The notes below the pieces were generated by a model that saw nothing but the letters and a program-made list of their open reading frames with translations, was not told the DNA's origin and ran no database searches. Below, in pieces: positions 3,838 through 36,160 of a stretch of DNA of 61,044 nucleotides; the first letter of the stretch is position 1; each line of letters opens with the position of its first letter. A program made the position numbers and the translations under genes. The DNA lies in NCBI GenBank assembly GCA_947626695.1, contig CANQTE010000002.1:1-61044 (forward strand), in the 5' to 3' direction. This DNA comes from an uncultured Bacilli bacterium. GTDB taxonomy: Bacteria; Bacillota_I; Bacilli_A; RF39; UBA660.

Positions 3838-3868
3838 AGCTTTGATATAATTTGGATGGTGATTAAAA

Positions 3869-7743: not shown

Positions 7744-7897
7744 GTTAGTCTCCTTTTCTTGTAATTTTATTTTACAACAAACTCTTAAAAAAAGGCAAGA
7801 AAAACAGTTCGACAAAATTTGCAAGAAGATTATCACAAAAATAAGTTGCAAAATTAAAGAAAATAAATTACAATATTAATATTGAGGGTGATATCTT

Positions 7898-13435: not shown

Positions 13436-13491
13436 GAAAAATTCTAATTTATTACTTGCATTTTTAATAAAAATATGTATATAATATTAAT

Positions 13492-13612
13492 AGAAATTGC
13501 AAAGAAATTTCTTAAGGACAAAAAAGAGATGCCATTTGTCGGTGTTCTCTAGTCCAATTTATGAGCTTTTGAACACCTTATCAATGAAGATATGGTGTTC
13601 TAATTTTATTTG
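13492..13612 (+). ncRNA. candidate small RNA, copy A (promoter, 5' hairpin, terminator)
   Basis: TTGCAT-18-TATAAT (13456-13485). The 5' hairpin is AGAAATT/AATTTCT. The terminator is GAACACCTTATC-AATGAA-GATATGGTGTTC (13571-13600) followed by TAATTTTATTT. No plus-strand ORF. Confidence 0.45.
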
Positions 13613-13795
13613 CCAGTATGCTCTCGTTGAATTAGCACTAAAAGTACTACTAGAATAACTAAGTATTCCATAATTCTCCTTGACCATAGGACATCACCTC
13701 TTTCCAAATTAGTATTTATTTAATAATCAAAAATTTTTAATTAATATTTAATATAATAATTGGACTGAGGTAGAACACCAACCTTTGGCATCTCT
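13525..13795. repeat. imperfect inverted repeats (13525-13559 and 13758-13795) bounding the small ORF
   Basis: The left arm is AGAGATGCCATTTGTCGGTGTTCTCTAGTCCAATT. The reverse complement of the right arm is AGAGATGCCAAAGGTTGGTGTTCTACCTCAGTCCAATT. Confidence 0.8.
13559..13687 (-). CDS. 42-codon small ORF (MVKENYGILSYSSSTFSANSTRAYWQIKLEHHIFIDKVFKSS), not in the supplied track
   Basis: Strong SD AAAGAGGTGA 6 nt before the ATG. It lies between 35/38-nt inverted repeats, and its 3' third is antisense to the copy-A terminator. Confidence 0.35.
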   Translation of the reverse strand: MVKENYGILSYSSSTFSANSTRAYWQIKLEHHIFIDKVFKSS

Positions 13796-13919
13796 ATTTA
13801 ATATTATAATATATTTATTAGAAAAAAGCTATTAAAATTTATACATATTACAGTACTTTTTATATTAAAATTTTAATTTAATACTTGTATTTTTAATAAA
13901 AGTAGGTTATAGTATAAAT

Positions 13920-14035
13920 AGAAATCGCAAAGATTTCTAAAAGACAAAAAGAGATATCTTTGTTGGCGTTCTCTAGTCCAATATAATTGTAGCTTGAACA
14001 TCTTATCAATGAAGATATGGTGTTCCTTTTTATTC
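13920..14035 (+). ncRNA. candidate small RNA or leader, copy C (paralogue of copy A)
   Basis: TTGTAT-17-TATAGT (13885-13913). The 5' hairpin AGAAATC/GATTTCT shows a compensatory change relative to copy A. It has the same AGAGAT...GTTCTCTAGTCCAAT core and the terminator 13996-14025 followed by CTTTTT. Confidence 0.45.
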
Positions 14036-14054
14036 CTTTGGATGATTGTTGAAT

Positions 14055-14078
14055 TAGTAGTAGTAATACTACTATTTT
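14055..14078 (+). terminator. hairpin TAGTAGTA-GTAA-TACTACTA followed by TTTT
   Basis: An 8-bp perfect stem, a GNRA-type loop and a T run. Confidence 0.5.
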
Positions 14079-14089
14079 AATTTTCTTAG

Positions 14090-14112
14090 GGCCTTTATTA
14101 TAAAGCCTTTTT
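14090..14112 (+). terminator. hairpin GGC(C)TTTA-TTA-TAAAGCC followed by TTTTT, just upstream of the rhodanese gene
   Basis: A 7-bp stem with one bulge followed by a T run. Confidence 0.5.
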
Positions 14113-14134
14113 AAATTTTTTAATAATATATACT

Positions 14135-14401
14135 GTGATTACTATGAAAAGATTAGACATAAAAGATTATAATAAAAATAAAGGCATATTAATTGATATT
14201 CAAAATAAAATAGATTATAATGACTATCATCACCCAGATAGCATAAATATTCCTTATGAAACATTACTTCTTAATTATAAAACATTGCTTGATAAAAATA
14301 AAAAGTATTATATTGTTTGTAATAAAGGAGTTAAATCTCGTAAAGCAGTAGCCATATTAGAATTTTATGGTTATGATGTTACTCAAATGAGCTATGAGTA
14401 A
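14135..14401 (+). CDS. single-domain rhodanese-like sulfurtransferase
   Basis: Active-site loop CNKGVKSRKA and about 88 aa. The start is uncertain (GTG 14135 or ATG 14144) and there is no clear SD. Confidence 0.7.
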   Translation: MITMKRLDIKDYNKNKGILIDIQNKIDYNDYHHPDSINIPYETLLLNYKTLLDKNKKYYIVCNKGVKSRKAVAILEFYGYDVTQMSYE

Positions 14402-14501
14402 CTTTTTTTTTATAAAAACTAAAAAATATCTTGCTATATTTTAAAACTTATGCTATATTTTAATTGTACTAGTGCATATAATACAGTTTGGAGGAAAATA
14501 T

Positions 14502-15401
14502 ATGATTGAGATTAAAAACTTAAGTAAAAGTTTTGATAAGAAAAATTATGTTTTAGAAAATCTTAATTGCACCATTAAAGATAACGCGATATACGGTCTA
14601 GTCGGTGCTAATGGGGCAGGTAAATCTACTTTACTTAGGTTAATTAATAGCATTTATAATGCTGATAAAGGAACTATATTTATAGATAATGAAGATGTTT
14701 ATGATAATGCGACTTTAAAAGCAAATATGGCTTTTGTCCCTGACGATTTATTTTTCTATAATAATTATAGTTTACTAGATATGATTTATTATTATGATGC
14801 TTTATATCCTAATTTTGATATTAACTATGTCTTAAAAATCGCGGATAAATTACATCTTAATAAAAATGCTAAAATAAGTTCCTTTAGTAAAGGAATGAAA
14901 AGACAATGTGCTTTACTCTGTGCTTTAGGAACTAAGAGCAAATATTTATTTTTTGATGAAACATTTGATGGCTTAGACCCTGTTGTCCGTAAGTTTTTTA
15001 AATCATTACTTGTTGATGCTTTAGAACAAAATAATGCAACTATTATTATGACTAGCCATAATTTAAGAGAATTAGAAGATATATGTGATAACTTAGGTTT
15101 ATTATATAAAGGAAATATCTTATTTGAAAGTGATATTGATACCTTAAAAACAACGATGTTTAAAGTTCAAATATCTCTAAAAGAAGATTTTAATAAAAAT
15201 ACTTTTAAAGAACTTAAATTATTATCTTATAAAAAATTAGGAAGTGTTGCTACTTTAATAATAGATGAAAATGGTAAAGATAGTAAAAAAATATTAGAGA
15301 AACTAAATCCTGTAATATTAGATTATTTACCACTTACTTTAGAAGAAGTATTTATATATCAAATGGAGGCCTTAGGTTATGAATTCAATGAAATTATTTA
15401 A
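14502..15401 (+). CDS. ABC transporter ATP-binding protein
   Basis: Walker A GANGAGKST, signature FSKGMKRQ, Walker B LFFDETFDGLD. GGAGG precedes ATG 14502. Confidence 0.9.
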   Translation: MIEIKNLSKSFDKKNYVLENLNCTIKDNAIYGLVGANGAGKSTLLRLINSIYNADKGTIFIDNEDVYDNATLKANMAFVPDDLFFYNNYSLLDMIYYYDALYPNFDINYVLKIADKLHLNKNAKISSFSKGMKRQCALLCALGTKSKYLFFDETFDGLDPVVRKFFKSLLVDALEQNNATIIMTSHNLRELEDICDNLGLLYKGNILFESDIDTLKTTMFKVQISLKEDFNKNTFKELKLLSYKKLGSVATLIIDENGKDSKKILEKLNPVILDYLPLTLEEVFIYQMEALGYEFNEII

Positions 15402-19935: not shown

Positions 19936-20589
19936 ATGAAAGTAAATAAAGTTTTTTGTTATTCTAAAGAAGTAGCTAATAAAAATGGTAATAAATTTTC
20001 CATTGGAGCATCAATTTTTTATCTATTGTTGATGTCATTAATCATTTCTATTATTTGTGCTTTAACTGGAGATTATGATCAAGGATATATCTTAATGGCA
20101 GTGATAACTATTGGACTTATAACCGCGGTATTTAGTTCTATATATTATGTAATAGTAAAAATAGGCCCAACAGCATCAGGATATGCGATAACAGAAGATA
20201 ATCGTATATTTAAATTAACCATTTTTAATAGTAAAGTGGGATTTCATTATCCTACAATGATGTCTAGTAATAATTTAGCAAGCAAAGGAATAGGCACAGC
20301 AGGAGGTTTAGTTGTTATGTCAAATGAAATTAAAAGAACACAAGAACTTATGACAAATGAGGAATTTATTGCTAAAACAATAGAAGAAAATAGAAATGTT
20401 ACAAATGCAAATATAAGAGAAATATTAAAAGTATATTCTATAAATGAAAAAAAACGTTTTATAAACATTACTTGTGATTATAGATTAAAAAGAAATAATA
20501 AAATATATTATAAAAAAAATTTAAAATTAGATAAATCATATAATGAATTAAATGATTTAGTAAGTGCACTTAAAACTCATATTAATTAA
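19936..20589 (+). CDS. hypothetical membrane protein (two TM helices plus a soluble C-terminal part)
   Basis: Hydrophobic segments ASIFYLLLMSLIISIICAL and ILMAVITIGLITAVFSSIYYVIV. No recognisable domain. Confidence 0.5.
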   Translation: MKVNKVFCYSKEVANKNGNKFSIGASIFYLLLMSLIISIICALTGDYDQGYILMAVITIGLITAVFSSIYYVIVKIGPTASGYAITEDNRIFKLTIFNSKVGFHYPTMMSSNNLASKGIGTAGGLVVMSNEIKRTQELMTNEEFIAKTIEENRNVTNANIREILKVYSINEKKRFINITCDYRLKRNNKIYYKKNLKLDKSYNELNDLVSALKTHIN

Positions 20590-20631
20590 TATGTTTTTTA
20601 ATTTATCTAAAATATAGATTTAATCTAGTAA

Positions 20632-20668
20632 TTTAAACTAAAGTTTGTTATAATAGCATTAGTTTAAA
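20632..20668 (+). promoter_or_regulatory. promoter of the envelope operon: extended -10 (TGTTATAAT, -10 at 20649-20654) bracketed by the perfect 10-bp inverted repeat TTTAAACTAA/TTAGTTTAAA
   Basis: The repeat arms at 20632-20641 and 20659-20668 are exact reverse complements. The RBS GGAGG follows at 20677. Confidence 0.5.
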
Positions 20669-20686
20669 TATATTTTGGAGGAGTTT

Positions 20687-21163
20687 ATGAAGAACTTAAA
20701 ATATATATTATTTATATTTATTATAGGGTTTATTTCTTTAAATGTTGTTAATGCTAAAGAAGTAAATTATAATTCATATGAAGTTATAAATGTAGATAAT
20801 AACAGGGGAAGTGGCTTTACAAAAAATGATAATATAGATTTTTGTACAAAAGATAATGTCAAAGGGGTATTTAGAGCTATAGGGTGGTTAATAGTAATTA
20901 TAAAGATTATAGTACCTTTAGTAATTATTGCATTTGGAGTTATAGAATTTGCTAAAGCTATGGTATCTAGTAAAGAAGAAGAAATAAAAAAAGCTGGTAA
21001 AAATCTTGTTATAAGTTCAATTTTAGGAATATTTGTCTTTTTTATACCCGCTATAATAAGCTTTGTTACAGGCTTAGTTGGGGGAGAAGATATTTATAAT
21101 GAATCTTTTGGAGTGTGTACTAACTGTATGCTAAATCCAGGTAGTTGTGAAATAGGGAAGTGA
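20687..21163 (+). CDS. secreted or membrane protein with a VirB2/TrbC-like topology (signal peptide, two-helix hairpin, Cys-rich tail)
   Basis: Signal peptide MKNLKYILFIFIIGFISLNVVNA. The hairpin is WLIVIIKIIVPLVIIAFGVIEFAKAMVSSKEEEIKKAGKNLVISSILGIFVFFIPAIISF. GGAGG precedes ATG 20687. Confidence 0.5.
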   Translation: MKNLKYILFIFIIGFISLNVVNAKEVNYNSYEVINVDNNRGSGFTKNDNIDFCTKDNVKGVFRAIGWLIVIIKIIVPLVIIAFGVIEFAKAMVSSKEEEIKKAGKNLVISSILGIFVFFIPAIISFVTGLVGGEDIYNESFGVCTNCMLNPGSCEIGK

Positions 21164-21167
21164 TGAT

Positions 21168-22328
21168 ATGCAAAAGAAAATGTTATTAATTATGCTTTTA
21201 ACTTTTATTTTATGTCCAAGATTAGTATTAGCATCTGGTACTATTAAATTTACAAATGGTAAAGAAAGTATTAAAAGTGCAGTATGTAATTATAAAGTGA
21301 CAAATAATTCATATTTTAAAAATATGCCTCTTCCATCATCTTATGTAAAGATTAATTTTGCAAATGAAAAACTTGTAGGAGCGGAATCGGAACAAACATA
21401 TACTTATTTAGGCTCAGATGTTACTTATAATACATTCTTTAGTGGTGAAAAATTTGAGTGTCCAAATAAATTATCATTTAGAAAAGAATTAAATTCAGTT
21501 CAAGGCCATTATGTTCATCAACCTAAAAATGATGATGATATGGATGGAAATGATTTTCACTTAGTATTTGATAAAAATGGCTCTACTGTTACATATAATT
21601 ACACTCAAGGAAAAGATGATACTCCTAAAGTTACAGTTAAATCAGAGTGTGCTCTTACTAGAACTATATCAGATGGCCAAGCAACTAAATATCAAAAATT
21701 ATCTCCAAGTGAGCTAACATATACAACTTATAGTGATAATACAACTGCTTTTGTAGGAGGAGATGGAACTAAATATAAAATTAGTTCTGGAAGTATTAGT
21801 GATTGTTCAACATCAAATCTTATCTCTTTACATATGAATATAAAAGATAACAAAATAAGTGATTATACTATATCTAATTGTAATCCTAATACTGAACAAT
21901 ATTGTGTTGGTTATCGACTTAGTAAATATGTAAATGCTAACCCTAATATGAACGATGATGGTACAGTTAATAACTCTGGTGGAAGTACAACTCCAACAGA
22001 ATCAACAGATTCAACGATTGATTTTGATATTACCGACGAAAATAATTGTGAAAGTTATTTAGGAAAAATAACTGATAAAAACGCTCCTGCTTATTATTTA
22101 CATATAGTTTTTAATGTAATGAAATATATTGCTATATTATTACTAGGTGGTTTAACAGTTGCAGATATATTTAAAGCAATAACATCGCAAAAAGATGAAG
22201 GAGTAAAAAAAATAGTACCCCTTCTAGTTAAAAGATTAATTATTGTAGTAATTATATTCTTTATACCTGATTTAGTAGAATTTATGTTTGAGTTATTTGG
22301 AATAATTACTAGCACAAATTGTGTATAG
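21168..22328 (+). CDS. secreted Cys-rich protein ending in the same two-helix membrane hairpin
   Basis: Signal peptide LLIMLLTFILCPRLVLASG and a ~290-aa ectodomain with multiple Cys. The C-terminus VMKYIAILLLGGLTVADIFKAITSQKDEGVKKIVPLLVKRLIIVVIIFFIPDLVEF aligns without gaps to the upstream protein. Confidence 0.5.
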   Translation: MQKKMLLIMLLTFILCPRLVLASGTIKFTNGKESIKSAVCNYKVTNNSYFKNMPLPSSYVKINFANEKLVGAESEQTYTYLGSDVTYNTFFSGEKFECPNKLSFRKELNSVQGHYVHQPKNDDDMDGNDFHLVFDKNGSTVTYNYTQGKDDTPKVTVKSECALTRTISDGQATKYQKLSPSELTYTTYSDNTTAFVGGDGTKYKISSGSISDCSTSNLISLHMNIKDNKISDYTISNCNPNTEQYCVGYRLSKYVNANPNMNDDGTVNNSGGSTTPTESTDSTIDFDITDENNCESYLGKITDKNAPAYYLHIVFNVMKYIAILLLGGLTVADIFKAITSQKDEGVKKIVPLLVKRLIIVVIIFFIPDLVEFMFELFGIITSTNCV

Positions 22329-22351
22329 ATTGAGAAAGGAGGAATATAGAT

Positions 22352-24778
22352 ATGGATGTTATAAAATCAATTCAAGAGGCTATCTTTGGCTTTCTTCTAT
22401 CATTAGATGGAATTGTATATAGCCTTATCACCTGGGTATATCAAATTATCATGATACTTGCCGAGAGTTCTTCTAAATTGTTTAGTAATACAGACTTATT
22501 AGATAATTTTATGAATAGACTTTATGTTATTATTGGAGTAGTCATGATGTTTTTCTTAGCATACTCACTTTTAAGGTCAATGGTAAACCCAGACGAATTA
22601 ACTAAAGGGAAAAAATCTCCAGTAAAAATTATTAAAGATGTTATCATATCTATTGCCCTGATAGCATTTGTTCCAACTATTTTTGAATACGCTTATAATT
22701 TTCAAAGTGCTGTTTTAAGTCAAAATACTATTGGAAAAATAATATTAGGTAATAATGCTGGGACAAGTGATGGAAGTGTAACATCAACATCAAGCATAAT
22801 TGACCAAGGTGGAAATACTTTTGCCTCGGCTTTATTAGGTGGTTTTATTCATCCTAAAATTGGTGAAGGTGCCTGTGGCTATGAAAATGGAGAATATAAA
22901 TGTAATAATTCAATAAAAGTAGATGGAGTGGAATTTAATGAATTTTGGAAAAATTTAGAAACAACTGGTGATTTTGGAAGTATATCATCTCTTAATACTT
23001 TAGTTGTTGATGGAAAAATAGACTATATGTGGCTAATAAGTACAATTGCAGGAGTACTTACTTTATTAATATTAGTTGGTTATTGTTTTGATACAGCTCT
23101 TAGGATGGTAAAACTGGCAGTTTTTCAGTTAATAGCACCTATTCCTATATTATGTCGTGTAGCACCAGGTGAACAAGGAGGAAAAGTTTTTTCTAATTGG
23201 GTTAAAGGAACACTTTCCACTTATTTGGAAGTCTTTATTAGGATGGCTATATTATTCTTTGCGGTGTTTATTATCACAGTAGTTATTTCAAATTTAGGTT
23301 CGATATTTGTAAGTGGAGCAGATACTGTAACAGAAGACCCAACCAAAATACTCCTTTTCTTAATAGCCAAAGTACTTATGATTTTAGGAATAATTTTATT
23401 TGTTAAACAAGCTCCTCAAATTATTAAAGAAATAACTGGACTTGATGGAGGCAAGTACAGTCCACTTAAGTCTGCTAAACAAGCATTTAGTTTCTTTGGC
23501 GGAGGTATTGCAGGTGCCATGGCTGGCGGTGGAGTATTAGGAGCATTAAGAGGAAGCTACAATGCTTATAATGAAGCTGGAGAAGCAAAAAAACTAACTG
23601 ATTTCCATTCAATAGGAAATCAATATAAAAGAAGTCAGGCGGCAAGAGAAGCAAGAGAAATACAAGAAGATAATGGACTTAGAGGTATAAGAAGAGTTGC
23701 AACTAATGTAGATAACAGTATGCGCAGAACATTTGGGTTTGCCACTTTAAAAGAACGAGCAGATAGAAGACTAGAAAATTTTCAAGATTTAAATGGAAAT
23801 TATTTTACAGTTACTAATGATACTGGAGCAGCTATTATGGCTGAAAACGGACGTGACGTGGTGCTTGGTGCTGGAGATACTATGACACTTACTCCAGAAG
23901 CTAGAGCAAACTTGGAACGACTTAAAGCAAGTCGTGAAAGAGCAAAAGCACAGATTTCAGAACAAGCACGACAAGCAGAAGATGCAACAAAAGTAAATCA
24001 AGCGGCAATTCAGGCGGTTAAAGATATAGAAGCATTAGCAGAATCAGAAATAGAAACTAAAAATAAGGTAAATTTGGTTACTAGAGATGAAAGTAGTGGC
24101 CTTTATCATTTTTTAGAATTAACTGCTCAGAAAAAAGTTAGAAATGCAGATGGAACAGAAGGTAATGTAACAGTTACTTTTGGAGGCGACGGAAAAACAT
24201 TGCAACAATATAGAGATTGGCTTGAAGCAATGAAGTCAGACTTAGCCCCTGAAGCATATGAAGATTTAAAAACTCAAGTTGATAGAGCACAACGAGAAGA
24301 TACTAAAAGATTTTTTATTGATAACAATGGGCGCGGTCAAGTTATTAAAAGTGATGGAAGTACTGTAACCTATGGCGAAGAAAATGAAGAATTGAAACAT
24401 AAAAAGCAAATGTTAATGACGGAATATGACCGTAGTAAATTAAAACATGTTACAAGAAATGCGGACGGCAGTGTTGCTACTACTGATGCAACTGCTACTT
24501 CATTAACCGGAAAAAATTCTGATGCCCTTACTATAGCTGATTTAAAAGCATATAAAAAAGCGGCCGAGACTGAAAATTTCACAGCCGATACAGTAAAAGG
24601 TCAAATACAAGCAGAAGTTGCTACTCAAGATATACAAATCAAGGGAATTAATAGGGTTATTGAACAACAACCTAAAGAACAAGTTGCACAACATAAGGCT
24701 AGTACTGAATATAGGCAAGTTGAGGCAGCAGATAGAGCACACAATATAAATAAACAGGGTGGCAATGGAGGACATTAA
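22352..24778 (+). CDS. polytopic membrane protein (VirB6/TrbL-like architecture) with a ~400-aa charged coiled-coil tail
   Basis: At least six hydrophobic helices in residues 1-400, with a ~110-aa loop. The C-terminal half is rich in A/E/K/R/Q. Confidence 0.45.
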   Translation: MDVIKSIQEAIFGFLLSLDGIVYSLITWVYQIIMILAESSSKLFSNTDLLDNFMNRLYVIIGVVMMFFLAYSLLRSMVNPDELTKGKKSPVKIIKDVIISIALIAFVPTIFEYAYNFQSAVLSQNTIGKIILGNNAGTSDGSVTSTSSIIDQGGNTFASALLGGFIHPKIGEGACGYENGEYKCNNSIKVDGVEFNEFWKNLETTGDFGSISSLNTLVVDGKIDYMWLISTIAGVLTLLILVGYCFDTALRMVKLAVFQLIAPIPILCRVAPGEQGGKVFSNWVKGTLSTYLEVFIRMAILFFAVFIITVVISNLGSIFVSGADTVTEDPTKILLFLIAKVLMILGIILFVKQAPQIIKEITGLDGGKYSPLKSAKQAFSFFGGGIAGAMAGGGVLGALRGSYNAYNEAGEAKKLTDFHSIGNQYKRSQAAREAREIQEDNGLRGIRRVATNVDNSMRRTFGFATLKERADRRLENFQDLNGNYFTVTNDTGAAIMAENGRDVVLGAGDTMTLTPEARANLERLKASRERAKAQISEQARQAEDATKVNQAAIQAVKDIEALAESEIETKNKVNLVTRDESSGLYHFLELTAQKKVRNADGTEGNVTVTFGGDGKTLQQYRDWLEAMKSDLAPEAYEDLKTQVDRAQREDTKRFFIDNNGRGQVIKSDGSTVTYGEENEELKHKKQMLMTEYDRSKLKHVTRNADGSVATTDATATSLTGKNSDALTIADLKAYKKAAETENFTADTVKGQIQAEVATQDIQIKGINRVIEQQPKEQVAQHKASTEYRQVEAADRAHNINKQGGNGGH

Positions 24779-24803
24779 TAATTTAATATTTTAGGAGGTT
24801 TTT

Positions 24804-25637
24804 ATGTTTAAATTATATAAAGGTAAAATTAGTGATATAATAAAAGATGAAATTGCTCAAGCTTTTGGTTTTGGAACTAAAAAAGAAAGAATAGACCATA
24901 ATTTAGGCCAATATAGAATTAATGAAGTTAATAATATAAATTATATTATAGCTCAACGAAATATTCTAATTTCTAAGTTAAATACTCAATTAGCTAATTA
25001 TGATAGAATATTAAACCCACTTAAAGAATTTGAAACTCTTTATAAAAAAATAGAAGAATTATCCGAACAAGAAATAATTAAAAATGGCTCTGCTGTTTCA
25101 TTTACTTTAAAAAGAAAAAATGGAAGTATTTATGCAAATGGAAATTATGCCACTTTAAGAGATGCAATAAAATTGGAAAAAAATGCAGATGAAGCAATAT
25201 TTCTTTATGACAGTTTAGAAAAAATGAGAAATAAAGCAAAAACACTCCTAATTGAAAAAATAATTAATAATAATGGAACAATTTATTCTCGCTTAGGAGA
25301 AATATATATTCCTGAAATTTGTACAAATTTTCAAAGATTAAAACAGCTAGTTTCCTTAGGACTTATTTGTAATTCTAGTGGAAATCCATATATATTTAGC
25401 ATAAATAATTTTAATGATGCTACTCTATTAAGAGATAGTATAAGAAAAGATATGAATTCATTAGAATATAATAGAAATGCTATTTATTACAATTTAAATT
25501 CACTAAAAAGTGCTTCTGCTTCTGATGAAAGCACATTAAATTTAATAGAAAAGTCTAAAGAATTAATAAGAAAATCTCCAGAATATATCGCAGCATCTTT
25601 AAGTGACGAATATTTAAAAGGAAAGAAGAACAGATGA
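24804..25637 (+). CDS. soluble protein paralogous to the tail of the preceding membrane protein
   Basis: AQAFGFGTKKERIDHNLGQY matches RRTFGFATLKERADRRLENF. IEELSEQEI matches IEALAESEI. IINNNGTIYS matches FIDNNGRGQVIKS. Confidence 0.5.
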   Translation: MFKLYKGKISDIIKDEIAQAFGFGTKKERIDHNLGQYRINEVNNINYIIAQRNILISKLNTQLANYDRILNPLKEFETLYKKIEELSEQEIIKNGSAVSFTLKRKNGSIYANGNYATLRDAIKLEKNADEAIFLYDSLEKMRNKAKTLLIEKIINNNGTIYSRLGEIYIPEICTNFQRLKQLVSLGLICNSSGNPYIFSINNFNDATLLRDSIRKDMNSLEYNRNAIYYNLNSLKSASASDESTLNLIEKSKELIRKSPEYIAASLSDEYLKGKKNR

Positions 25638-25671: not shown

Positions 25672-27036
25672 ATGTACAATAATATTTTAATTGAATCTTT
25701 AGATTCTTTTGGTAGAGGTATAGCTCATATAAATGGAAAAGTAATTTTTGTTAAAAATGCTTTACCTGAAGAAATAGTAGATATAAAAATTTTAATAAAT
25801 AAAAAAAGATATAGTGAAGCTATAGTATTAAAATATATTAAATTAAGTCCTAAAAGAGTTAAAAGTATATGCCCATATTTTAATAAATGTGGAGGGTGTC
25901 ATTTATTATATTATAATTATTTAGATAGTATAGATTTTAAATATAATAAAGTTAAAGATTTATTTATTAAAAATAAAATTAATGTTAAAAATATAGATGT
26001 TGTTGCTAATACTAATTATTTAGAATATCGCAATAAAATAAGTTTAAAGATAATAAATAAAAAAATAGGTTTTTATAAAGATAGTACTCATGAATTAGTA
26101 GAAATAGATAAATGTTTAATAGCAAATTCTTCTATTAATAAAGTAATTAAGTGTTATAAATTATTAAATATTAATAATGGTGAGTTAATAATTAGAGTAA
26201 ATAGTAATAATGAAATATTATTAATTATTAAAAGTAGTAATAATAATTATAATATAGAAATAGAAAAATTAAAAAAAGAAATTAAATTAGTAGGTATAGT
26301 ATATAATAATAAAGTTATTTATGGAAATGATTTTTATTATGAAAGAATTAATAATAAACTATTCAAAATAAGTTATGATTCTTTCTTTCAAGTTAACCCT
26401 TATATTACTAGTAAATTATTTAATTTAGTAAGCGATAATATAGACCAAGATAGTACTGTTTTAGATTTATATAGTGGTGTAGGTACTTTAGGTATTATAG
26501 CAAGTACTAAAGCTAAATATGTTTATAGTGTTGAAATAGTAAAAAATGCTGTTTTAAATGGTAATAAAAATGCTTTATTAAATAAAGTAAATAATATTAA
26601 GTTCTTTTTAGGAGACGTATCTAAAATAGTAAATAAATTAAATGTAGAGTTTAATACACTTATAATAGACCCTCCAAGATGTGGTTTAGATAAAGAAACT
26701 ATTAAATTTATTAAAGATAAGTTGTGTTAAACATAATTACTGATAAAGAAATATTAGACATAAATTTGCTATTATATGAAATCTCAATTGTGTTTAATTT
26801 TGTTGAAATAACCTGTTTTTATCATCTATCAGTCATAAAGTAAAACAGAACCTAAAGATAAAAAATTTCAAAAAATTATTTATATTTCCTGTGATATTTT
26901 TACCCTTATTAGAGATTTAAAATTATTAGATAATTATAGTATAAAAGAGTATAAAATTCTCGATATGTTCAGCTTCACGTATCATTTAGAATCTTTTTGT
27001 GTACTAAATTTAAATAAAGATTTAAAAGAAAAATAA
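25672..27036 (+). pseudogene. 23S rRNA (uracil-5-)-methyltransferase, RumA/RlmD family, interrupted in frame by a 133-nt insertion
   Basis: TRAM N-terminus, Fe-S Cys cluster CPYFNKCGGCHLLY, SAM motif VLDLYSGVGTLG, and DPPRCGL. The C-terminal KIIYISCDIFTLIRDL...DMFSFTYHLESFCVL resumes at 26854 in the same frame after several stop codons. Confidence 0.8.
26721..26853. mobile_element. MITE-like 133-nt insertion with the 8-bp target-site duplication AAAGATAA
   Basis: AAAGATAA occurs at 26713-26720 and 26854-26861 in the same codon phase. The imperfect terminal inverted repeat is GTTGTGTTAAAC against GTTCTGTTTTAC (reverse complement of the end), matching 9 of 12. There is no ORF inside. Confidence 0.55.
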
Positions 27037-27212: not shown

Positions 27213-27241
27213 TTGACAAGATGTATAAAATATGGTATAAT
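27213..27241 (+). promoter_or_regulatory. consensus sigma-A promoter TTGACA-17-TGGTATAAT (extended -10) for coiled-coil gene 1
   Basis: Exact -35 and -10 hexamers, a 17-nt spacer and a TG at -15/-14. The RBS AGAGGGAG follows. Confidence 0.8.
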
Positions 27242-27268
27242 CTAAGCATCGAAAGAGGGAGATTGGAT

Positions 27269-29731
27269 ATGAATATTAATGAATTAAATCAAAAAATTGA
27301 AAATATTGAGTCTAGACTAAGAGACTGGGTTTATCTAGAATCAAGTGGTTCAATTGCTTATGACGATTTATTTAAATTATCAGAAGAAATTTTAACAGAA
27401 AAAGAAAAATTAAATAATGGAGAAGTAGATGCTGATTTGTCTGATGTAGCACCAAATTTATTAGAGGCTTTAGATAGATTAGACAGTATTCAAAAAAGAA
27501 TAAACGAGGAGATAATAAGTAGAACTAAAACAGCGAAAACTCTTCCTTATTGTAAAATTTTAGAACAAAATGTTAAACAAAATATTGCTACGATGGAAGT
27601 TTTAATTAAAGCAAAAAGTAGCGATAGATTTATAGCTAAATTAAGCGAAATGTCTGAACTTGAAGCAGAAATAGTAGCTACTTTAAGTGCAGTAGAAAAA
27701 GATGAAAAAGAACGTGAAAAGGCTGGCTATAAAGATTTTAGTCATACTGTTTCAAAAACTGTTTTGCAAAATGCCCTTGATGAGTGGCAAGAAATTAAGT
27801 CACAACTACCAGAACAGTATAGAAATAGGGAAACTACAAAAGATACAATAGAACAACCTATCATTGAAGATAAGCCTATTGATATAAATGCTGAGATTAG
27901 ACAAATAACTTTAGAAGTAAATGAAATATACTCAAATTTTAGAAATAATAATGCTAAATCTGAATCTGATAAACCAGAAGAAGAAATTAGTATCAAATTA
28001 GCAGAATTAAAGAAAATTTCAAGCTTAAAAGAACGTATGCTTAAACTTGCATCAGCAACAAAAGATGACTTTATAAAAATTGGTGTTTTAGATCAACTTG
28101 AAAAAATTGAAAAAGTTGAGACAAAAGTATCAGAAAGTGCAAAGACAATAAGTGAAACTCTAGGTAGCAATGTAAAATTAAGTGCTGAAAGTTCAAGAAT
28201 AATAATGGAAATAAGTCAAAAACTTTCGGCAATTGGAATTTTAAGAGCAGCAGGAAAAGCAGCTGCTATTACTGAAGATGAAATTTCAGCAAGAATAAAA
28301 GAATTAAAACGTTTAGAAAAAGAGCTATCTGATATAAAAGAAAAATTACAAAAAGAATTACAAGAAACTAAATCAGAAGAAAATCAAAAAGCAATAAACA
28401 GTATATTAAAAAATATAGGAAATAGTGAAAATAGCTTAAAAGACTTCAAGAAAAGTGAATTAAGTCGTAAAACATTAGAAACTATTAGTTTAGAGGAATT
28501 GGATGAAATTGATTTAGAAAATGCTCTACGTTTATTTGGACTAAAAGAGGGCTTTGATAGAAATGCGTTAGAAGAAAGAAATAGTGAGTTATTAAGCAAA
28601 TATGATGCTTATGATACAGAGGGAACAGAAGAATTTGAGAAAGCAAAAGAAACAGAGCAAAAAATTGGTAAATTAAGGGCAAAATTACTTGAAGAATTAA
28701 AACAAAGACAGGCAAAAGAACATTATGATAATTTAACTTTTGATAGCATGACAGAAGAAGATTTACAAAAAATTAAAGATGATAATGATATAAAAACAGC
28801 TTTACATTTATACGGTTTAGAAGAAAACTATACTGAAGAAGAATTAAAAGCTAAAAAAGAGGAATTATTTATAAAATATCGCCAAAATACAAAATTAACT
28901 CCAGACCAAAGAAGTAGCATAATTGATAACATATTAGCTATAAATGATATTTTAGAAATAGAATTATCAAAGAAACAATCAATTGAACAACAAAATAATA
29001 CTAATAATGGTAATACCGCTGTAGATAATCAAGATATAGAAACTTTAAATAGTGAAGATTCACTAGAGGATGAAATGCCTGTTAAAGTTGTTGCTTCAAG
29101 AGTATGGAATTATGTAAAAGATCATAAGAAACAAATATTAATAGGTATTGGTATTGCTGCTTTACTTACTGTATCATTTATTAGTCTTTATAATTTAGGC
29201 ATTGTAGCTCAGATGGCTGCAAATGGTAGTGCTTGGTTTACAACAGAAGTTGCTAAGCGCGAAGCTTTACACGTTGCAAATAGTCAATTAGCTGAAAAGT
29301 TATTATTTATAAGTCATAGTTTTGAACAAATTAATGGTGTTTGGACTATTGGAGGTCAAAAACTTTTAACTGGTAAATTAATTAATACTTTAAGTGGTAT
29401 TTCTTTAGCAACAGGTGCTCTTGGTGTAAGTGGACTTGTACTAACTAATTTAATTAAAAAGAGATCTCAAGCTTATAAAGAGATAAAAAATGAAATTAGA
29501 GTTTTAAATTCTGACATTAACATTGAACTTATTAGACCTAGTAGTATTAGCAATGCAGAAGAGAGATTTAAGGATTTAGTAAATAAAATAAATAATTCTA
29601 CAGAATTATCAAAAGATGAACAGAAAATTTTATTAACTAAATTAAAAAATGTAGAGAAAAATAGGTTACGTTTTGTAGGAAGAAATCAAGAACCTGATGA
29701 ATTAGATTTAGAAGGAAGGAGTAGGGCTTAA
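27269..29731 (+). CDS. large coiled-coil protein with two degenerate J-domain-like repeats and a C-terminal two-TM membrane domain (paralogue 1)
   Basis: 820 aa from ATG 27269; the track start at 27221 lies inside the promoter. About 620 aa are heptad-rich. Motifs include ALRLFGLKEGFDRNALEERNSELLSKY and ALHLYGLEENYTEEELKAKKEELFIKY. The TM helices are ILIGIGIAALLTVSFISLY and LSGISLATGALGVSGLVLTNL. Confidence 0.75.
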   Translation: MNINELNQKIENIESRLRDWVYLESSGSIAYDDLFKLSEEILTEKEKLNNGEVDADLSDVAPNLLEALDRLDSIQKRINEEIISRTKTAKTLPYCKILEQNVKQNIATMEVLIKAKSSDRFIAKLSEMSELEAEIVATLSAVEKDEKEREKAGYKDFSHTVSKTVLQNALDEWQEIKSQLPEQYRNRETTKDTIEQPIIEDKPIDINAEIRQITLEVNEIYSNFRNNNAKSESDKPEEEISIKLAELKKISSLKERMLKLASATKDDFIKIGVLDQLEKIEKVETKVSESAKTISETLGSNVKLSAESSRIIMEISQKLSAIGILRAAGKAAAITEDEISARIKELKRLEKELSDIKEKLQKELQETKSEENQKAINSILKNIGNSENSLKDFKKSELSRKTLETISLEELDEIDLENALRLFGLKEGFDRNALEERNSELLSKYDAYDTEGTEEFEKAKETEQKIGKLRAKLLEELKQRQAKEHYDNLTFDSMTEEDLQKIKDDNDIKTALHLYGLEENYTEEELKAKKEELFIKYRQNTKLTPDQRSSIIDNILAINDILEIELSKKQSIEQQNNTNNGNTAVDNQDIETLNSEDSLEDEMPVKVVASRVWNYVKDHKKQILIGIGIAALLTVSFISLYNLGIVAQMAANGSAWFTTEVAKREALHVANSQLAEKLLFISHSFEQINGVWTIGGQKLLTGKLINTLSGISLATGALGVSGLVLTNLIKKRSQAYKEIKNEIRVLNSDINIELIRPSSISNAEERFKDLVNKINNSTELSKDEQKILLTKLKNVEKNRLRFVGRNQEPDELDLEGRSRA

Positions 29732-29997
29732 TGAAGGTTGATACAGTAGTGACACTAGCAAATAATAAAGAATATTTATTATTATTGGAATCTAAATTAG
29801 TAGGAGAAGATTATTTCTTAGCAGTATTATTAGATTCTAGAGGAGAGCCAACCGTTGATTATGCAGTATTAAAAAAAGTTATAAAAGACGGTGAAGAGTA
29901 TGCTCAAAAAATAAATAACGTTGAAATATTAAAAGAATTGCTAGAAGATTATGGAGAACAATATGCCGATTTATATGGAGACGGCGAGGAAGTTTAG
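29731..29997 (+). CDS. small acidic DUF1292-like protein, translationally coupled (TAATG) to the coiled-coil gene
   Basis: 88 aa: VTLANNKEYLLLLESKLVGEDYFLAVLL...EEYAQKINNVEILKELLEDY. Its ATG overlaps the upstream TAA. Confidence 0.55.
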   Translation: MKVDTVVTLANNKEYLLLLESKLVGEDYFLAVLLDSRGEPTVDYAVLKKVIKDGEEYAQKINNVEILKELLEDYGEQYADLYGDGEEV

Positions 29998-30008
29998 GCT
30001 TCCTTTTT
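29988..30008 (+). terminator. rho-independent terminator
   Basis: GGAAG-TTTAGG-CTTCC followed by TTTTT. Confidence 0.65.
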
Positions 30009-30021
30009 AAATTGCAAAAAT

Positions 30022-30050
30022 TTGACAAAACATACAAAATATGCTATAAT
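30022..30050 (+). promoter_or_regulatory. consensus sigma-A promoter TTGACA-17-TGCTATAAT (extended -10) for coiled-coil gene 2
   Basis: Same architecture and near-identical 5' UTR as at 27213: CTAGGCATTGAAAGAGGGATAGTTTGGATATG against CTAAGCATCGAAAGAGGGAGATTGGATATG. Confidence 0.8.
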
Positions 30051-30079
30051 CTAGGCATTGAAAGAGGGATAGTTTGGAT

Positions 30080-32434
30080 ATGGCAATTGAAGATTTAAAG
30101 AAAAATATACAAGAATTTAAAGAAGAATTAACAAAGATAAAATCTATGACAGGCAAAACTTATATTAATAATTCTATATTATATATTACTAAAAAAATAT
30201 TAGAATTAACACAAAATTTAGAACAAGAAGTAACAGATGAATTAATAGAAAATTTAGAAACTTTAGATGTGATTTATGAAGAAGCAATTACTATTGCTAA
30301 AAAAAATGACGAATATGGATATTGTGAATTATTACATAATTTTATGATGCAAAAACTTTGGACAATAAAAGTTATGCTTAAATCTATTAATAAAGACAAT
30401 TTAAAGAATAAAATTACTAAAAATTTAGCAAGTTTAGAAGATATAAAAAAGGAGACTGAATTAGAAATTAATTCTTTAGAACAAAGTATAGGGGAATATA
30501 ATGATTATAATACTTATTATGATACAGAAAGTTTAAAAGTATTACGACAAGATATTAAGGCTTATAATTCATTTATAATTGAACTACCAAAAGAATATAG
30601 AAAAACATCAAGTTCTACTATTGAAGGAGTAACTTCTATTGAAGATACTATAGAAATTAAACAAATAACTTCAGAAGTAGAAGAAATTTGTATGAATTTC
30701 CAAAATAATAGTCTTAAATCTAAATCTGGAAGAATAGAAGAAGAAATAAGCATAAGATTAGAAGAATTATCTAAAATTGCAAAATTAAAAAATCGTATGT
30801 TTAAACTTATTTCAAAATCATCAGAAAGAGATATAAAACTCTCAGTTTTAGAGCAACTTAAAAAAATAGAAAAAGTTACGACTGAAATTTTAGAAGATAT
30901 AAAGAGTGTAAATGAATCTTTAAGTGATGAAGCATTAAAATTAAGTGTTGAAAGTTCAAGAATAGTAAATGAAATAAAGCAAAAACAATCTGCGATAAAA
31001 ATTTTAAGTGCAGTTGAAAACAAAAGCAATTTAGATGAAGCAAGACTTGCAATAAAATTAAAAGATTTAGATCGCTTAGAGCAAGATTTATTAAACATAC
31101 AAGCTAAATTACAAGAAAAACTAAAAAAGGTTAAATCTATTGAAGATCAAAAAATAATTAGCGGCATATTAAAAAATATAGAGTATTTTCAAACAGATTT
31201 AACAGATTTTAAGAAAAATAGATTAAATAGTAGGACATTAGAAAGTATTAGTTTAGCAGATTTAGATGACATTGATTTAGAAAGTGCATTACGTTTATTT
31301 GCTCTAAATAAAGATTTCGATAGATATGCTTTAGAGGCAAGATGCAGTGAATTATTAGAGAAATATGAACCTCTTGATGCTCAAGGAATAGAAGAACGTG
31401 AAAAAGCAGATGAAATGACTCATAAAGTAATAAAATTAAAAGCAAGATTACTTACAAACTTAAGAGAAAGACATGAAGAAAGCAAAATTCTTACTCTTGA
31501 TGATATGACAGAAGAAGATTTACAAAAAATTCAAGTTAATAATGATATAAAAACAGCATTACATTTATTTGGATTAAAAGAAGGATATACTAGAGAAGAG
31601 TTAGAAAATAAAAAATATGAATTATATACGAAATATCGTGAAAATCCTGAATTAACACATGATAAAAAAAGTAGTTTAATTGACAAAGTACTAGCTATAA
31701 ATACTATCTTAGAAACAGAATTAAACAGAAATAAACAAAAAAGTCGAAATTCTGAAATTATAAATAATAGTTCAAAAGATACTACTTCTAGTACTAGAGA
31801 GTATATTGATAATTCAAATCCAGTTAAAGTAGTTGCCACGAGGGCATGGAATTGGGTAAAAGATCATAAAAAACAAATTTTAATTGGAATTGGTATCCTA
31901 GCTATTTCCTTATCAATGGTAAGTATGTTAAACCTATCTATGGCATCACAAATGGTTGCAAGTGGAGCAGCACGGCTCCATGCTGGTAGTGCAGTCCAAC
32001 TTGCTTTGCATGATGCAAACATTACTATATCTAAGCAATTACTAGGTTTAAGAGCTAGTTATGAAGCTGGTCTTGGAGTTTGGACAATCGGAGGTCAAAA
32101 AATCTTAACTAGTAACTTAATTAATATGCTAACAGGTGTTACTTTAGTATCACAATTTGCTGGACTTGGAGTATCTTTTGCAGGTTTAATTTCTAAAAAA
32201 AGTAATGTTTATAAAGATATTAGTGAGCAAATTAAAGACTTTAGACGTATTCCTTTAGATGAAAGCAATGGAATAACTAGAGGTAGATATCTTTCTCTTG
32301 CAGATACTATAAAAAATTCTAATGATTTATCAAATTCAGAAAAAAATGAATTATCTAATGATTTAATAAATGCCTACAAATATTTATCTTCAAATCAAAG
32401 ACAAATATTTGAAGAAGAAAGAATAAGAAGATAA
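30080..32434 (+). CDS. large coiled-coil protein with two J-domain-like repeats and a C-terminal two-TM domain (paralogue 2)
   Basis: 784 aa. It is collinear with paralogue 1 from about residue 190 onward, for example ALRLFALNKDFDRYALEARCSELLEKY, ALHLFGLKEGYTREELENKKYELYTKY and VKVVATRAWNWVKDHKKQILIGIG. Confidence 0.75.
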   Translation: MAIEDLKKNIQEFKEELTKIKSMTGKTYINNSILYITKKILELTQNLEQEVTDELIENLETLDVIYEEAITIAKKNDEYGYCELLHNFMMQKLWTIKVMLKSINKDNLKNKITKNLASLEDIKKETELEINSLEQSIGEYNDYNTYYDTESLKVLRQDIKAYNSFIIELPKEYRKTSSSTIEGVTSIEDTIEIKQITSEVEEICMNFQNNSLKSKSGRIEEEISIRLEELSKIAKLKNRMFKLISKSSERDIKLSVLEQLKKIEKVTTEILEDIKSVNESLSDEALKLSVESSRIVNEIKQKQSAIKILSAVENKSNLDEARLAIKLKDLDRLEQDLLNIQAKLQEKLKKVKSIEDQKIISGILKNIEYFQTDLTDFKKNRLNSRTLESISLADLDDIDLESALRLFALNKDFDRYALEARCSELLEKYEPLDAQGIEEREKADEMTHKVIKLKARLLTNLRERHEESKILTLDDMTEEDLQKIQVNNDIKTALHLFGLKEGYTREELENKKYELYTKYRENPELTHDKKSSLIDKVLAINTILETELNRNKQKSRNSEIINNSSKDTTSSTREYIDNSNPVKVVATRAWNWVKDHKKQILIGIGILAISLSMVSMLNLSMASQMVASGAARLHAGSAVQLALHDANITISKQLLGLRASYEAGLGVWTIGGQKILTSNLINMLTGVTLVSQFAGLGVSFAGLISKKSNVYKDISEQIKDFRRIPLDESNGITRGRYLSLADTIKNSNDLSNSEKNELSNDLINAYKYLSSNQRQIFEEERIRR

Positions 32435-32439
32435 ATATT

Positions 32440-32520
32440 ATGAAAGTTGATAATGTAAAAATACTTATTAAGGGTGATGAATATAATTTTGTCACTCTTT
32501 TTGTATACCAAATTAATTAA
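32440..32520 (+). pseudogene. truncated copy (26 codons) of the DUF1292-like partner gene
   Basis: MKVDNVKILIKGDEYNFVTLF... matches the start of the 88-aa protein (MKVDTVVTLANNKEYLLLL) and then stops. Confidence 0.5.
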
Positions 32521-34871: not shown

Positions 34872-35354
34872 ATGTTAACAGCAAAACATGTTGCGGAATA
34901 TTTTCTTTCAAAATATTCAGAAAGAAAGCTTTTTAACTATAATGTAGTTTCATATAATGGTAGGAAATTCTATGAAGGCAATGCAAGAATAAATAAATAT
35001 TTATTTTTAGCTCAAGTAGTTCATTTGGCTAAGTATAATTCAAAATTGTTTTCTGATGATTTTGTAGCGTATGATAATGGTCCAGTTGTTGAATCAATAA
35101 TGAATTCATATGGAAGACTTGCAGGTCATTACGACGATGAAAATATCAATGAAGTAGAAAAAAATTTTTTAGATAAAATATATTTTTCTTTAGAAAATGC
35201 AACCTATGAAGAATTAATAGAAATAACTCACGAAGACCCTGAATGGCAAATTTTAAGTAAAGATACATATAATGCTCCAATAATGAATTTAGAAAAAAAT
35301 ATCGCGGAATATAAGAAAAGATATAAAGGATTAATTGAAGCATTAAAAATATGA
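34872..35354 (+). CDS. Panacea (DUF4065, SocA/PanA-like) antitoxin-domain protein
   Basis: VAEYFLSK...NKYLFLAQVVHLAKYNSKLFSDDFVAYDNGPVVESI matches the KLQKLLYYAQ...F.AW..GPV pattern. Promoter TTGATT-17-TATAAT at 34773-34801. Confidence 0.7.
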   Translation: MLTAKHVAEYFLSKYSERKLFNYNVVSYNGRKFYEGNARINKYLFLAQVVHLAKYNSKLFSDDFVAYDNGPVVESIMNSYGRLAGHYDDENINEVEKNFLDKIYFSLENATYEELIEITHEDPEWQILSKDTYNAPIMNLEKNIAEYKKRYKGLIEALKI

Positions 35355-35513: not shown

Positions 35514-35616
35514 AGTGAGTGAGTAGTTCGCTGAGTTACTGGAGGGGTTAGTTTAATACTTTCCCAGCAAGCATTGACTTGTGGGTTCCTCTAGTCAGGG
35601 GAAAGCTCACTTTTTA
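35514..35616 (+). ncRNA. candidate structured small RNA 2 downstream of the Panacea gene
   Basis: TTGACA-17-TAAAAT (35479-35507). Nested helices are AGTGAG/CTCACT, CTGGAGG/CCTCTAG and CCCA(G)CAAG/CTTGTGGG, followed by TTTTTATTT. Confidence 0.4.
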
Positions 35617-35719: not shown

Positions 35720-36160
35720 ATGCAGTTATATAAAGGTAAAACATGGGAAATAATTTTTGCCGACTATTCACAAGAATTTATAGGTTATTCCATCATAAGT
35801 AGTAATAAAGAAACTTTAAGCGATTTAACAAATGAGGATTGGATAGAACTAGGAATTCTTGAAAAAGAACTAGAACGAGTATGTAAAAAGTTATTTAAAG
35901 CGACTATGTTTAATTTTGTATGTCTTATGAATAATGCCTATCGTGATAATGAAAAACCCCATGTTCACTTTCATTTTATTCCTCGCTATAAAAATAAATT
36001 TGTTATTTTTGATAAACCTTACTCTGATAAACACTTTGGCTATAATTTTTATAAATGGGATTTAAATAAATTTAAAAAACAAAAAGATATTTTCTCTAAA
36101 GAAGAAAAATTAGCTATATTTAATATGCTAAAAGAAGAATTTAAAACTAATAATTTATAA
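35720..36160 (+). CDS. HIT (histidine triad) family protein
   Basis: Histidine-triad motif KPHVHFHFIPRY. Confidence 0.75.
   Translation: MQLYKGKTWEIIFADYSQEFIGYSIISSNKETLSDLTNEDWIELGILEKELERVCKKLFKATMFNFVCLMNNAYRDNEKPHVHFHFIPRYKNKFVIFDKPYSDKHFGYNFYKWDLNKFKKQKDIFSKEEKLAIFNMLKEEFKTNNL

Follow-up and report, generated by a model that had tools for sequence, protein, structure and literature searches.

A 61,044-nucleotide stretch of DNA from an uncultured Bacilli bacterium (RF39 lineage; contig CANQTE010000002.1), referred to here as the window, carries, twice in tandem, a gene pair that had not been described before, encoding a long helical membrane-anchored protein and a small acidic partner. 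We call the two large proteins BigA and BigB. An earlier note on this DNA, made from the letters alone, had described two units at 27213-32520 with promoters at 27213 and 30022, and every anatomical element was found where the note had placed it. ORFs (open reading frames) and DNA alignment confirmed an 820-amino-acid and an 88-amino-acid product coupled via TAATG in the first unit, and a 784-amino-acid product followed by a 26-codon truncated copy of the partner gene in the second (Table 1). The identical 820-amino-acid product and the same gene arrangement are present on independent metagenome contigs, and the 784-amino-acid BigB on a window-identical contig, L001. Within the 6.1 kb from 26.6 to 32.7 kb, only the sites at 27213-27241 and 30022-30050 match the promoter consensus at 12 of 12 positions. 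Promoter-like sites overall are not in excess (36 versus 37.6 in shuffled sequences), and only these two stand out. The promoter and 5′ untranslated region are 79% identical between the units over 92 nt, and the consensus promoters suggest constitutive expression.

We searched for relatives exhaustively with HMMER, using a BigA/BigB profile against 1.84 billion representative proteins, which resulted in 81 proteins at E ≤ 1e-3, 62 of them at E ≤ 1e-10. In these relatives the best-scoring stretch fell within the C-terminal part of the profile, where it centred on positions ∼600-815 and in a few cases started as early as ∼425; the exceptions were BigB itself (P0002 in the search) and one 49-amino-acid N-terminal fragment. 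The N-terminal arms of the 69 longer members are helical, evolve fast and differ between lineages, falling into at least 19 unrelated BLAST groups, with BigA and BigB together forming one separate group. Because relatives match in the C-terminal part while the arms split in this way, the family is defined by a C-terminal module of ∼220 amino acids alone, comprising a basic motif, a first transmembrane helix (TM1), a small loop, a Gly-rich second transmembrane helix (TM2) and a basic helical tail. The earlier note had noticed neither this nor the variability of the arm across the family, nor the origin of the middle region described below. In a word-indexed homology search, whole BigA retrieved only itself, the pair of C-terminal modules retrieved nothing and a 44-sequence profile retrieved three proteins, since helical words of low complexity swamp the index. 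Scanning genome contigs with coiled-coil peptides gave no loci, and scanning them with an alignment of the transmembrane helices and loop gave six loci in MAGs (metagenome-assembled genomes). A metagenome scan with a four-sequence partner alignment gave one locus.

The earlier note had recognised no characterised family, and our searches agree. BigA, BigB and the partner have no significant match in Pfam, NCBIfam, PADLOC or PHROGs, and no Pfam domain covers the two-TM module in any of the 69 longer members. Profile searches of the PDB with the module gave nothing significant (best E = 0.11), and with the partner nothing below E = 0.1. Foldseek searches with the predicted structures were equally negative, with best E values of 1.1 for the module against the PDB and 0.083 for the partner against the PDB, and no significant match for the partner in BFVD.

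An alignment of 44 modules gave a consistent set of conserved positions. A nearly invariant basic motif, W-x-W-[IV]-K-x-H-K-K-Q-I-L-I-x-x-G, precedes TM1. The loop contains M-x-x-N-G-x-x-W, A-L-H-x-A-N and T-G-x-W-T-x-G-G, in which M, N, L-H, N and G-x-W are invariant or nearly so; most members, BigA and BigB excepted, continue with Ala-rich helices. TM2 reads G-x-G-G-L-G-x-x-G-x-G-L, and the tail contains K-K-S-x-x-Y-K-x-I and L-S-x-x-E-K-x-x-L-x-x-K-L-x-x-x-x-K-K. The AlphaFold2 model built from this alignment has a mean predicted local distance difference test score (pLDDT) of 80.8 and a predicted template modelling score (pTM) of 0.47. It consists of a long TM1 helix, a second helix, a beta-hairpin at G-x-W-T, an ill-defined TM2 and three clear C-terminal helices, where pLDDT reaches 98 and module positions E196 and L200 are nearly invariant. 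We infer that the N terminus faces the cytoplasm, the loop the outside and the C terminus again the cytoplasm, since basic residues precede TM1 and follow TM2 and the J domains found in some relatives are cytoplasmic.

The partner is tightly coupled to the large gene. In all 13 long-form loci (the window, L003-L010, L013-L015 and L017), an ORF of 81-90 codons starts at most 15 nt from the stop codon of the large gene, and the two overlap in four. The window partner is 42-69% identical to partners elsewhere, compared with only 20-44% for the membrane module, and clusters of partner sequences occur on as many as 81 contigs. Its Shine-Dalgarno sequence (GGAAGGAG, 29714-29721) lies within the last codons of BigA, where it encodes G-R-S-R-A. 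We had considered the G/R-rich C-termini of the large proteins (GRSRA, GRGGR, GKGK, KGRGM) as a peptide motif and rejected this, as they are the GGAGG-like Shine-Dalgarno sequence of the partner read in frame. These C-termini (window 29714-29731; L014 about 2250-2275) are thus a constraint at the nucleotide level and a sign of tight gene coupling. The AlphaFold2 model of the partner, built from 10 sequences (pLDDT 84.8, pTM 0.71), has five strands and a C-terminal helix. A Pur-alpha/PC4-like fold, suggested by weak Foldseek matches, was rejected at template modelling scores of 0.27-0.31 and root-mean-square deviations of 7.6-10.8 Å.

The earlier note had called the partner DUF1292-like. Like DUF1292 proteins (PF06949; YrzB-type), it is ∼80-90 amino acids long and acidic, with an N-terminal strand motif V-x-L-x-D/N-x-x-x-Y-h-h-h. 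However, the PF06949 hidden Markov model (HMM) matched none of eight partners (seven searched at E ≤ 10, the L014 partner at E ≤ 1). Comparing the partner profile by hhalign with a true DUF1292 protein encoded at L014 (25.8 bits, threshold 24) gave a probability of 1.7% (E = 0.028, 26 columns). On these HMM and hhalign results we rejected membership in DUF1292. The DUF1292 gene itself (L014 3328-3555) lies between two inverted, almost 100% identical copies of a segment that holds the partner gene, the terminator and the final ∼17 codons of the large gene (2220-2560 on the plus strand and 3590-3930 on the minus strand), and the second copy is fused behind an unrelated 269-amino-acid protein with a single TM helix.

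A J domain (Pfam DnaJ) is present in 3 of the 69 longer members. We verified it in P0003 (36.6 bits) and P0023 (49.1 bits; threshold 27.8), both of which contain the HPD motif (YHPD). P0003 is the closest relative of BigA, with 44% identity in the module. J domains act on cytosolic Hsp70 and function only in the cytoplasm; hence the arm of the J-domain-bearing relatives must be cytoplasmic. BigA and BigB each contain two repeats, at about residues 405-575, that are related to this domain. BigA residues 515-574 align with residues 24-80 of P0003, its J domain, with 43% identity over 68 amino acids (pairwise E = 8e-9), and P0003 likewise has two repeats, one with and one without HPD. The positions of BigB aligned to HPD read KYEPLD and KYRENP. 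None of the four window repeats matched Pfam DnaJ at E ≤ 10, nor did whole BigA or BigB, and a repeat profile made from the window copies alone found no J-domain structure in the PDB and nothing below E = 0.1. As the window-only profile finds no such structure, descent from a J domain is established only transitively. The window repeats appear to be degenerate derivatives of a J domain; descent is supported, membership in the J-domain family is not.

The polarity of these proteins also bears on whether they could be LXG/WXG-type polymorphic toxins secreted by a type VII system, with the downstream gene encoding immunity. A WXG100 match lies in the arm of one of the 69 members (E = 1.3e-7), the N-terminus is helical and a small gene follows. 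In the family, however, it is the C-terminus that is conserved and the N-terminus that varies, the reverse of such toxins, and the J domains of the relatives imply a cytoplasmic arm. BigA and BigB gave no WXG100 match, the neighbours' Pfam matches at L001, L010, L013, L014 and L017 included no EssC/FtsK-type ATPase, and the loci lie amid housekeeping genes. We regard secretion of this kind as extremely unlikely.

Several members (L006, L009) have linkers before TM1 resembling acidic/proline-rich (APR) regions. At L009, a 507-amino-acid paralogue (12876-14693, plus strand) has no two-TM module but has the N-terminal arm and acidic/proline-rich linker in common with the family member at 6319-7986 (61% identity over 310 amino acids). 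Ahead of this paralogue lie an ORF for a type IV pilin-like protein and an 81-amino-acid ORF that is weakly partner-like (hhalign E = 9.5e-4, 22% probability) and, like the partners, does not match PF06949 at E ≤ 10.

The reading that we tentatively favour, as a possibility rather than as an expectation, is that the product of each unit is a cytoplasmic scaffold or adaptor, tethered to the membrane, with a soluble partner co-translated alongside. The conserved hairpin would anchor the protein and probably oligomerise the complex via the Gly-rich TM2, with arm and tail both facing the cytoplasm. The acidic partner would bind the basic tail and form a cytoplasmic subcomplex, and the variable arm would hold cytoplasmic clients at the membrane, the client being DnaK where a working J domain exists. 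The J-derived repeats of the window, which lack HPD, would be passive binding or spacer modules and not Hsp70 activators. The tandem duplication would have provided a second arm variant, BigB, without a partner of its own, which may share the partner of BigA or work alone. Consistent with this reading are the charge complementarity of the BigA tail (isoelectric point, pI, 9.5) and the window partner (pI 4.2, net charge -11), the adjacency of the partner in 13 of 13 loci, the higher conservation of the partner than of the membrane module, the J domains of some relatives, the confident AlphaFold2 models of module and partner, the housekeeping neighbourhoods free of phage, plasmid and defence matches, and the consensus promoters.

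Several points weigh against the scaffold reading. No homologue of known function stands behind it, and only charge and the coupling of the two genes suggest that the partner binds the tail. The weak hydrophobicity of TM2 and its poor modelling leave the topology insecure. The module also exists in two short stand-alone forms of about 240 amino acids (L011/L012, L016) that lack a partner, and at L009 the weakly partner-like ORF adjoins a paralogue with the arm and no membrane module, so that the partner may act with the arm and not with the tail. With a J domain in only 3 of 69 members and window repeats without HPD, recruitment of Hsp70 cannot be the common function of the family. Finally, the segment from TM1 to TM2 is the most constrained part of the protein, with the lowest ratio of nonsynonymous to synonymous substitution rates (dN/dS 0.50) between BigA and BigB, which together with the invariant polar residues of the loop speaks for a role at or outside the membrane and not for simple anchoring.

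The last point suits a transmembrane envelope sensor or coupler, in which the loop between the helices is the working part and binds a lipid-linked precursor, a wall polymer or an ectoprotein, while arm, tail and partner relay or regulate. Most of the invariant polar residues (M, N, H, N and G-x-W) lie in the loop. One short form is located between VanZ-like and uppP/bacA genes and adjoins polysaccharide-synthesis genes, a gene for a penicillin-binding protein (PBP) lies near the modules of L009 and L013, and a MurJ/SpoVB-like flippase gene follows that of L007. In 10 of the 44 aligned members, the Ala-rich segment of the loop gives sub-threshold matches to DUF1542, which is known as a repeat of surface proteins. 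Yet the loop of BigA and BigB has only about 63 amino acids, we found no known ligand-binding or catalytic domain, no member carries an output domain (kinase, cyclase or DNA-binding), and the neighbourhoods are heterogeneous. We consider a sensor of this kind rather unlikely.

A conserved two-TM module with a Gly-rich TM2, variable N-termini and a small acidic protein encoded downstream could also belong to a pore-forming effector of the abortive-infection, toxin or holin-like type, with the variable arm as sensor and the partner as antidote. SLATT and Saf_2TM effectors of conflict systems likewise have a two-TM module followed by helices, and variable N-terminal fusions. A few family members give sub-threshold matches to SLATT_1, Saf_2TM, SLATT_fungal and SLATT_6, the module is prone to duplication (in the window and at L014), and the window has a SocA/Panacea ORF and a DUF3800-VII RNA some 2.5 kb downstream of it. 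These matches are, however, far below threshold and sit amid noise from other membrane families (Peptidase_M48_N, DUF2207_C). SLATT_1 scored 14.4 bits in BigA against a threshold of 26.3, and among 44 members there were two matches to SLATT_1 and one to Saf_2TM, each at E ∼0.03-0.04. With all matches sub-threshold, we rejected membership in SLATT and in DUF1542. PADLOC matched nothing, phage, plasmid and IMG/VR sequences contained no relatives, five loci follow rplL and two share nfo-pbp2-efp synteny. BigB retains a consensus promoter despite the decay of its own partner gene, which is difficult to square with a toxin in need of a cognate antidote, and conservation is higher in the partner than in the putative toxin. 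An antitoxin more conserved than its toxin would be unusual. We judge a pore-forming effector to be unlikely.

The two copies in the window were compared in turn. BigA and BigB are collinear paralogues, as the earlier note had proposed, with 42% identity over 755 amino acids (E = 4e-163). Identity is 15-28% over the first ∼195 residues and 42-62% over residues ∼196-595; beyond ∼595 follow TM1 (621-648), a loop of ∼63 amino acids with GVWTIGGQK, the weakly hydrophobic, Gly-rich TM2 (712-730) and a tail of ∼90 amino acids. The note had also spoken of a giant coiled coil. This fits only in part, as heptad-like periodicity comes in patches between about residues 50 and 370, and residues ∼405-575 are occupied by the J-derived repeats. 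Over 1532 nt of coding DNA, the two units share 69.8% identity. Nei-Gojobori (NG86) estimates, which are rough at this base composition, gave a synonymous divergence (dS) of ∼0.67 and an overall dN/dS of 0.72; by region, the ratio is ∼1.0 for both N-terminal arm and tail, 0.65 for the middle and lowest, at 0.50, for the TM-loop-TM segment. The note had thought a recent duplication possible. Because the units are 70% identical in coding DNA and dS is about 0.67, the duplication is old, and the copies have diverged fast outside the membrane module.

A dN/dS of ∼1 in arm and tail could also mean that BigB, or both large genes, are decaying, non-functional remnants within gene debris. The second partner gene has indeed decayed: the first ∼45 nt of its remnant align with the 5′ end of the partner gene (ATGAARGTTGATA...), and no Shine-Dalgarno sequence lies upstream. 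The 3′ end of BigB (EEERIRR) has lost the Shine-Dalgarno sequence present in the last codons of BigA, which fits decay of the second partner copy, and the neighbouring rlmD-type gene is interrupted. Against decay of the large genes, frames of 784 and 820 codons are intact at 24% GC, where the chance probability of a 784-codon open frame, computed from composition, is ∼1e-31. Both promoters are perfect and the 5′ untranslated region is 79% conserved, family-invariant residues are retained in both BigA and BigB, dN/dS is 0.5-0.65 in the middle and TM regions, and the NG86 method is unreliable at this base composition. Decay of the large genes is thus very unlikely.

The scaffold reading invites comparison with known membrane-tethered or scaffold proteins. 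J co-chaperones of the DjlA type are tethered to the membrane with a J domain on the cytoplasmic face, as in P0003 and P0023. In DjlA the TM helix is N-terminal and the J domain C-terminal; in the present family the order is reversed, the anchor is a two-TM hairpin without detectable homologue, a dedicated small partner is added and most members have no J domain. EzrA, a septation-ring regulator of Firmicutes, is likewise long, helical and cytoplasmic and is kept at the membrane. Its one TM helix is N-terminal, whereas the TM helices of BigA and BigB are C-terminal; PF06160 did not match BigA or BigB and gave one sub-threshold match (E = 0.025) among the 44 C-terminal modules. Chemoreceptor domains (MCPsignal, HAMP and ligand-binding domains) were absent from BigA and BigB, and the 69 longer members included one sub-threshold match to PilJ.

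A further comparison is with the cytoskeletal scaffold proteins of the Mycoplasma terminal organelle. Mollicutes are close relatives of the Bacilli carrying the family, and TopJ is a soluble protein that is not known to carry a two-TM module. TopJ (MPN119), for example, combines a J domain, coiled coil, APR linkers and disordered regions (PMC4923136). The members with APR-like linkers at L006 and L009 resemble it in architecture only; no EAGR box was seen in the family sequences read, and the partner has no counterpart on the TopJ side. None of DjlA, TopJ and EzrA is a homologue. We rate the conserved core and the partner as new protein families, and the overall kind as that of a membrane-tethered helical adaptor with a small partner.

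A bolder proposal would treat hairpin and partner as a new membrane machine of Erysipelotrichales/RF39-type Bacilli, either a partner-closed pore effector with interchangeable sensor arms or the anchor of a lineage-specific cytoskeletal or Hsp70-recruiting apparatus comparable to the terminal-organelle proteins of Mycoplasma, the window copies being two arm specificities that share one partner. We find this distinctly improbable.

We next summarise the features of the two units and then turn to the distribution of the family.

Table 1. Coordinates of the features of the two units, as positions in the window.
Feature	Position	Strand	Evidence or remark
Promoter of unit 1	27213..27241	+	TTGACA-17 nt-TATAAT with TG extension; 12/12 consensus match
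BigA, 820 amino acids; helical N-terminal arm and C-terminal two-TM module	27269..29731	+	ORF
BigA J-derived repeat 1 (putative)	28478..28705	+	No HPD, reads KYDAYD; four-repeat alignment; weak match to the segment preceding the P0003 J domain
BigA J-derived repeat 2 (putative)	28754..28981	+	No HPD, reads KYRQNT; similarity to the P0003 J domain
BigA TM1	29126..29209	+	Hydropathy peak 2.31; preceded by basic motif VKDHKKQILIG; AlphaFold2 helix 32-68 of module
BigA inter-TM loop (helix, helix, beta-hairpin GVWTIGGQK), predicted extracytoplasmic	29210..29398	+	AlphaFold2 helix 73-89, strands 95-106
BigA TM2, Gly-rich, weakly hydrophobic	29399..29455	+	Hydropathy 1.7; AlphaFold2 helix 114-140, pLDDT <50 at 123-137
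BigA basic tail, predicted cytoplasmic; three helices, LS..E...L..KL motif	29456..29728	+	pI 9.5; AlphaFold2 helices 146-217
Partner, acidic soluble protein of 88 amino acids	29731..29997	+	ORF; start shares one base with BigA stop (TAATG)
Terminator-like hairpin closing unit 1	29986..30005	+	
Promoter of unit 2	30022..30050	+	TTGACA-17 nt-TATAAT with TG extension; 12/12 consensus match
BigB, 784-amino-acid paralogue of BigA, same architecture	30080..32434	+	ORF; start context as in BigA
Decayed 5′ remnant of second partner gene, 26 codons	32440..32520	+	DNA alignment with partner 5′ end
Terminator-like hairpin within the remnant, closing unit 2	32470..32499	+	

The family is a rare chromosomal one of uncultured low-GC gut Bacilli. 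The MAGs encoding relatives are labelled as uncultured Erysipelotrichaceae, Bacilli and Tenericutes, and two bins as Muribaculaceae. The earlier note had found the setting of the module consistent with accessory DNA and had suggested mapping the neighbourhoods of homologues to see whether they cluster in defence or mobile regions. This mapping revealed no such clustering. At five loci, the module comes directly after a run of ribosomal-protein genes whose last member is rplL (rplJ-rplL where the contig extends far enough); at L010 it precedes hisS-aspS, and at L009 and L013 it lies in a pcrA...nfo-pbp2-efp region, with the PBP gene two genes downstream. Linkage to defence or nucleotide-signalling genes was not seen: PADLOC gave no matches, and the neighbours are rplL, hisS, nfo, pbp2 and efp. 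Searching phage genomes and plasmids by tblastn with module and partner found nothing, and neither IMG/VR nor PHROGs contained relatives, which argues against a defence or mobile origin. The short stand-alone modules (L011 7104-7838, L016 408-1130) have almost no N-terminal arm.

The genes around the two units in the window (the five-gene block and the rlmD-type gene upstream, and the SpoVID/YsxE-like genes, the SocA/Panacea ORF and addBA downstream) recur at none of the other loci. We therefore rejected two candidate links drawn from them, a role in sporulation based on the SpoVID-like and YsxE-like genes, and a connection to an upstream 808-amino-acid protein. The latter is encoded in a block of five consecutive genes without Pfam matches (19936-25637, plus strand; 217, 162, 386, 808 and 277 amino acids); it apparently has several TM segments and gives sub-threshold matches to T4SS_pilin and the conjugation protein pLS20_p028, and the 277-amino-acid product contains a repeated FGF-x-T-x-KER-x-D segment. 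The block is followed by a methyltransferase gene of the rlmD/RumA type (25672-27035, plus strand), interrupted in frame by ∼140 nt (26727-26870). The earlier note had called this a gene split by a miniature inverted-repeat transposable element (MITE). The interruption is real; the insert, flanked by an imperfect 42-nt inverted repeat of 71% complementarity (26704-26745, 26827-26868), is present once in the window, and its identity as a MITE is plausible but unproven. Downstream, a 160-amino-acid ORF (34872-35354, plus strand) has a SocA_Panacea domain, an antitoxin-type domain, and no obvious toxin gene stands beside it in the list of ORFs. The DUF3800-VII RNA motif of Rfam (35518-35616, plus strand; 56.3 bits, gathering score 36.2) lies ∼100 nt upstream of a 146-amino-acid ORF (35720-36160) without Pfam match.

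Overall, our analysis delimits an undescribed pair of protein families for which curated libraries hold no relative by sequence or fold and which is confined to low-GC gut Bacilli that are uncultured and poorly known. The evidence is enough to define the family and too little to claim new biology. At present the module is a well-delimited domain of unknown function: its boundaries are clear, it has invariant residues, its topology can be tested and its partner is obligate. Should the pore reading be true, it would be a new class of effector. If the scaffold reading is true, DnaK or other clients would be placed at the membrane in a manner not described for model Firmicutes, and the pair would open a way into the cell biology and the envelope of organisms in a clade that has no genetic system.

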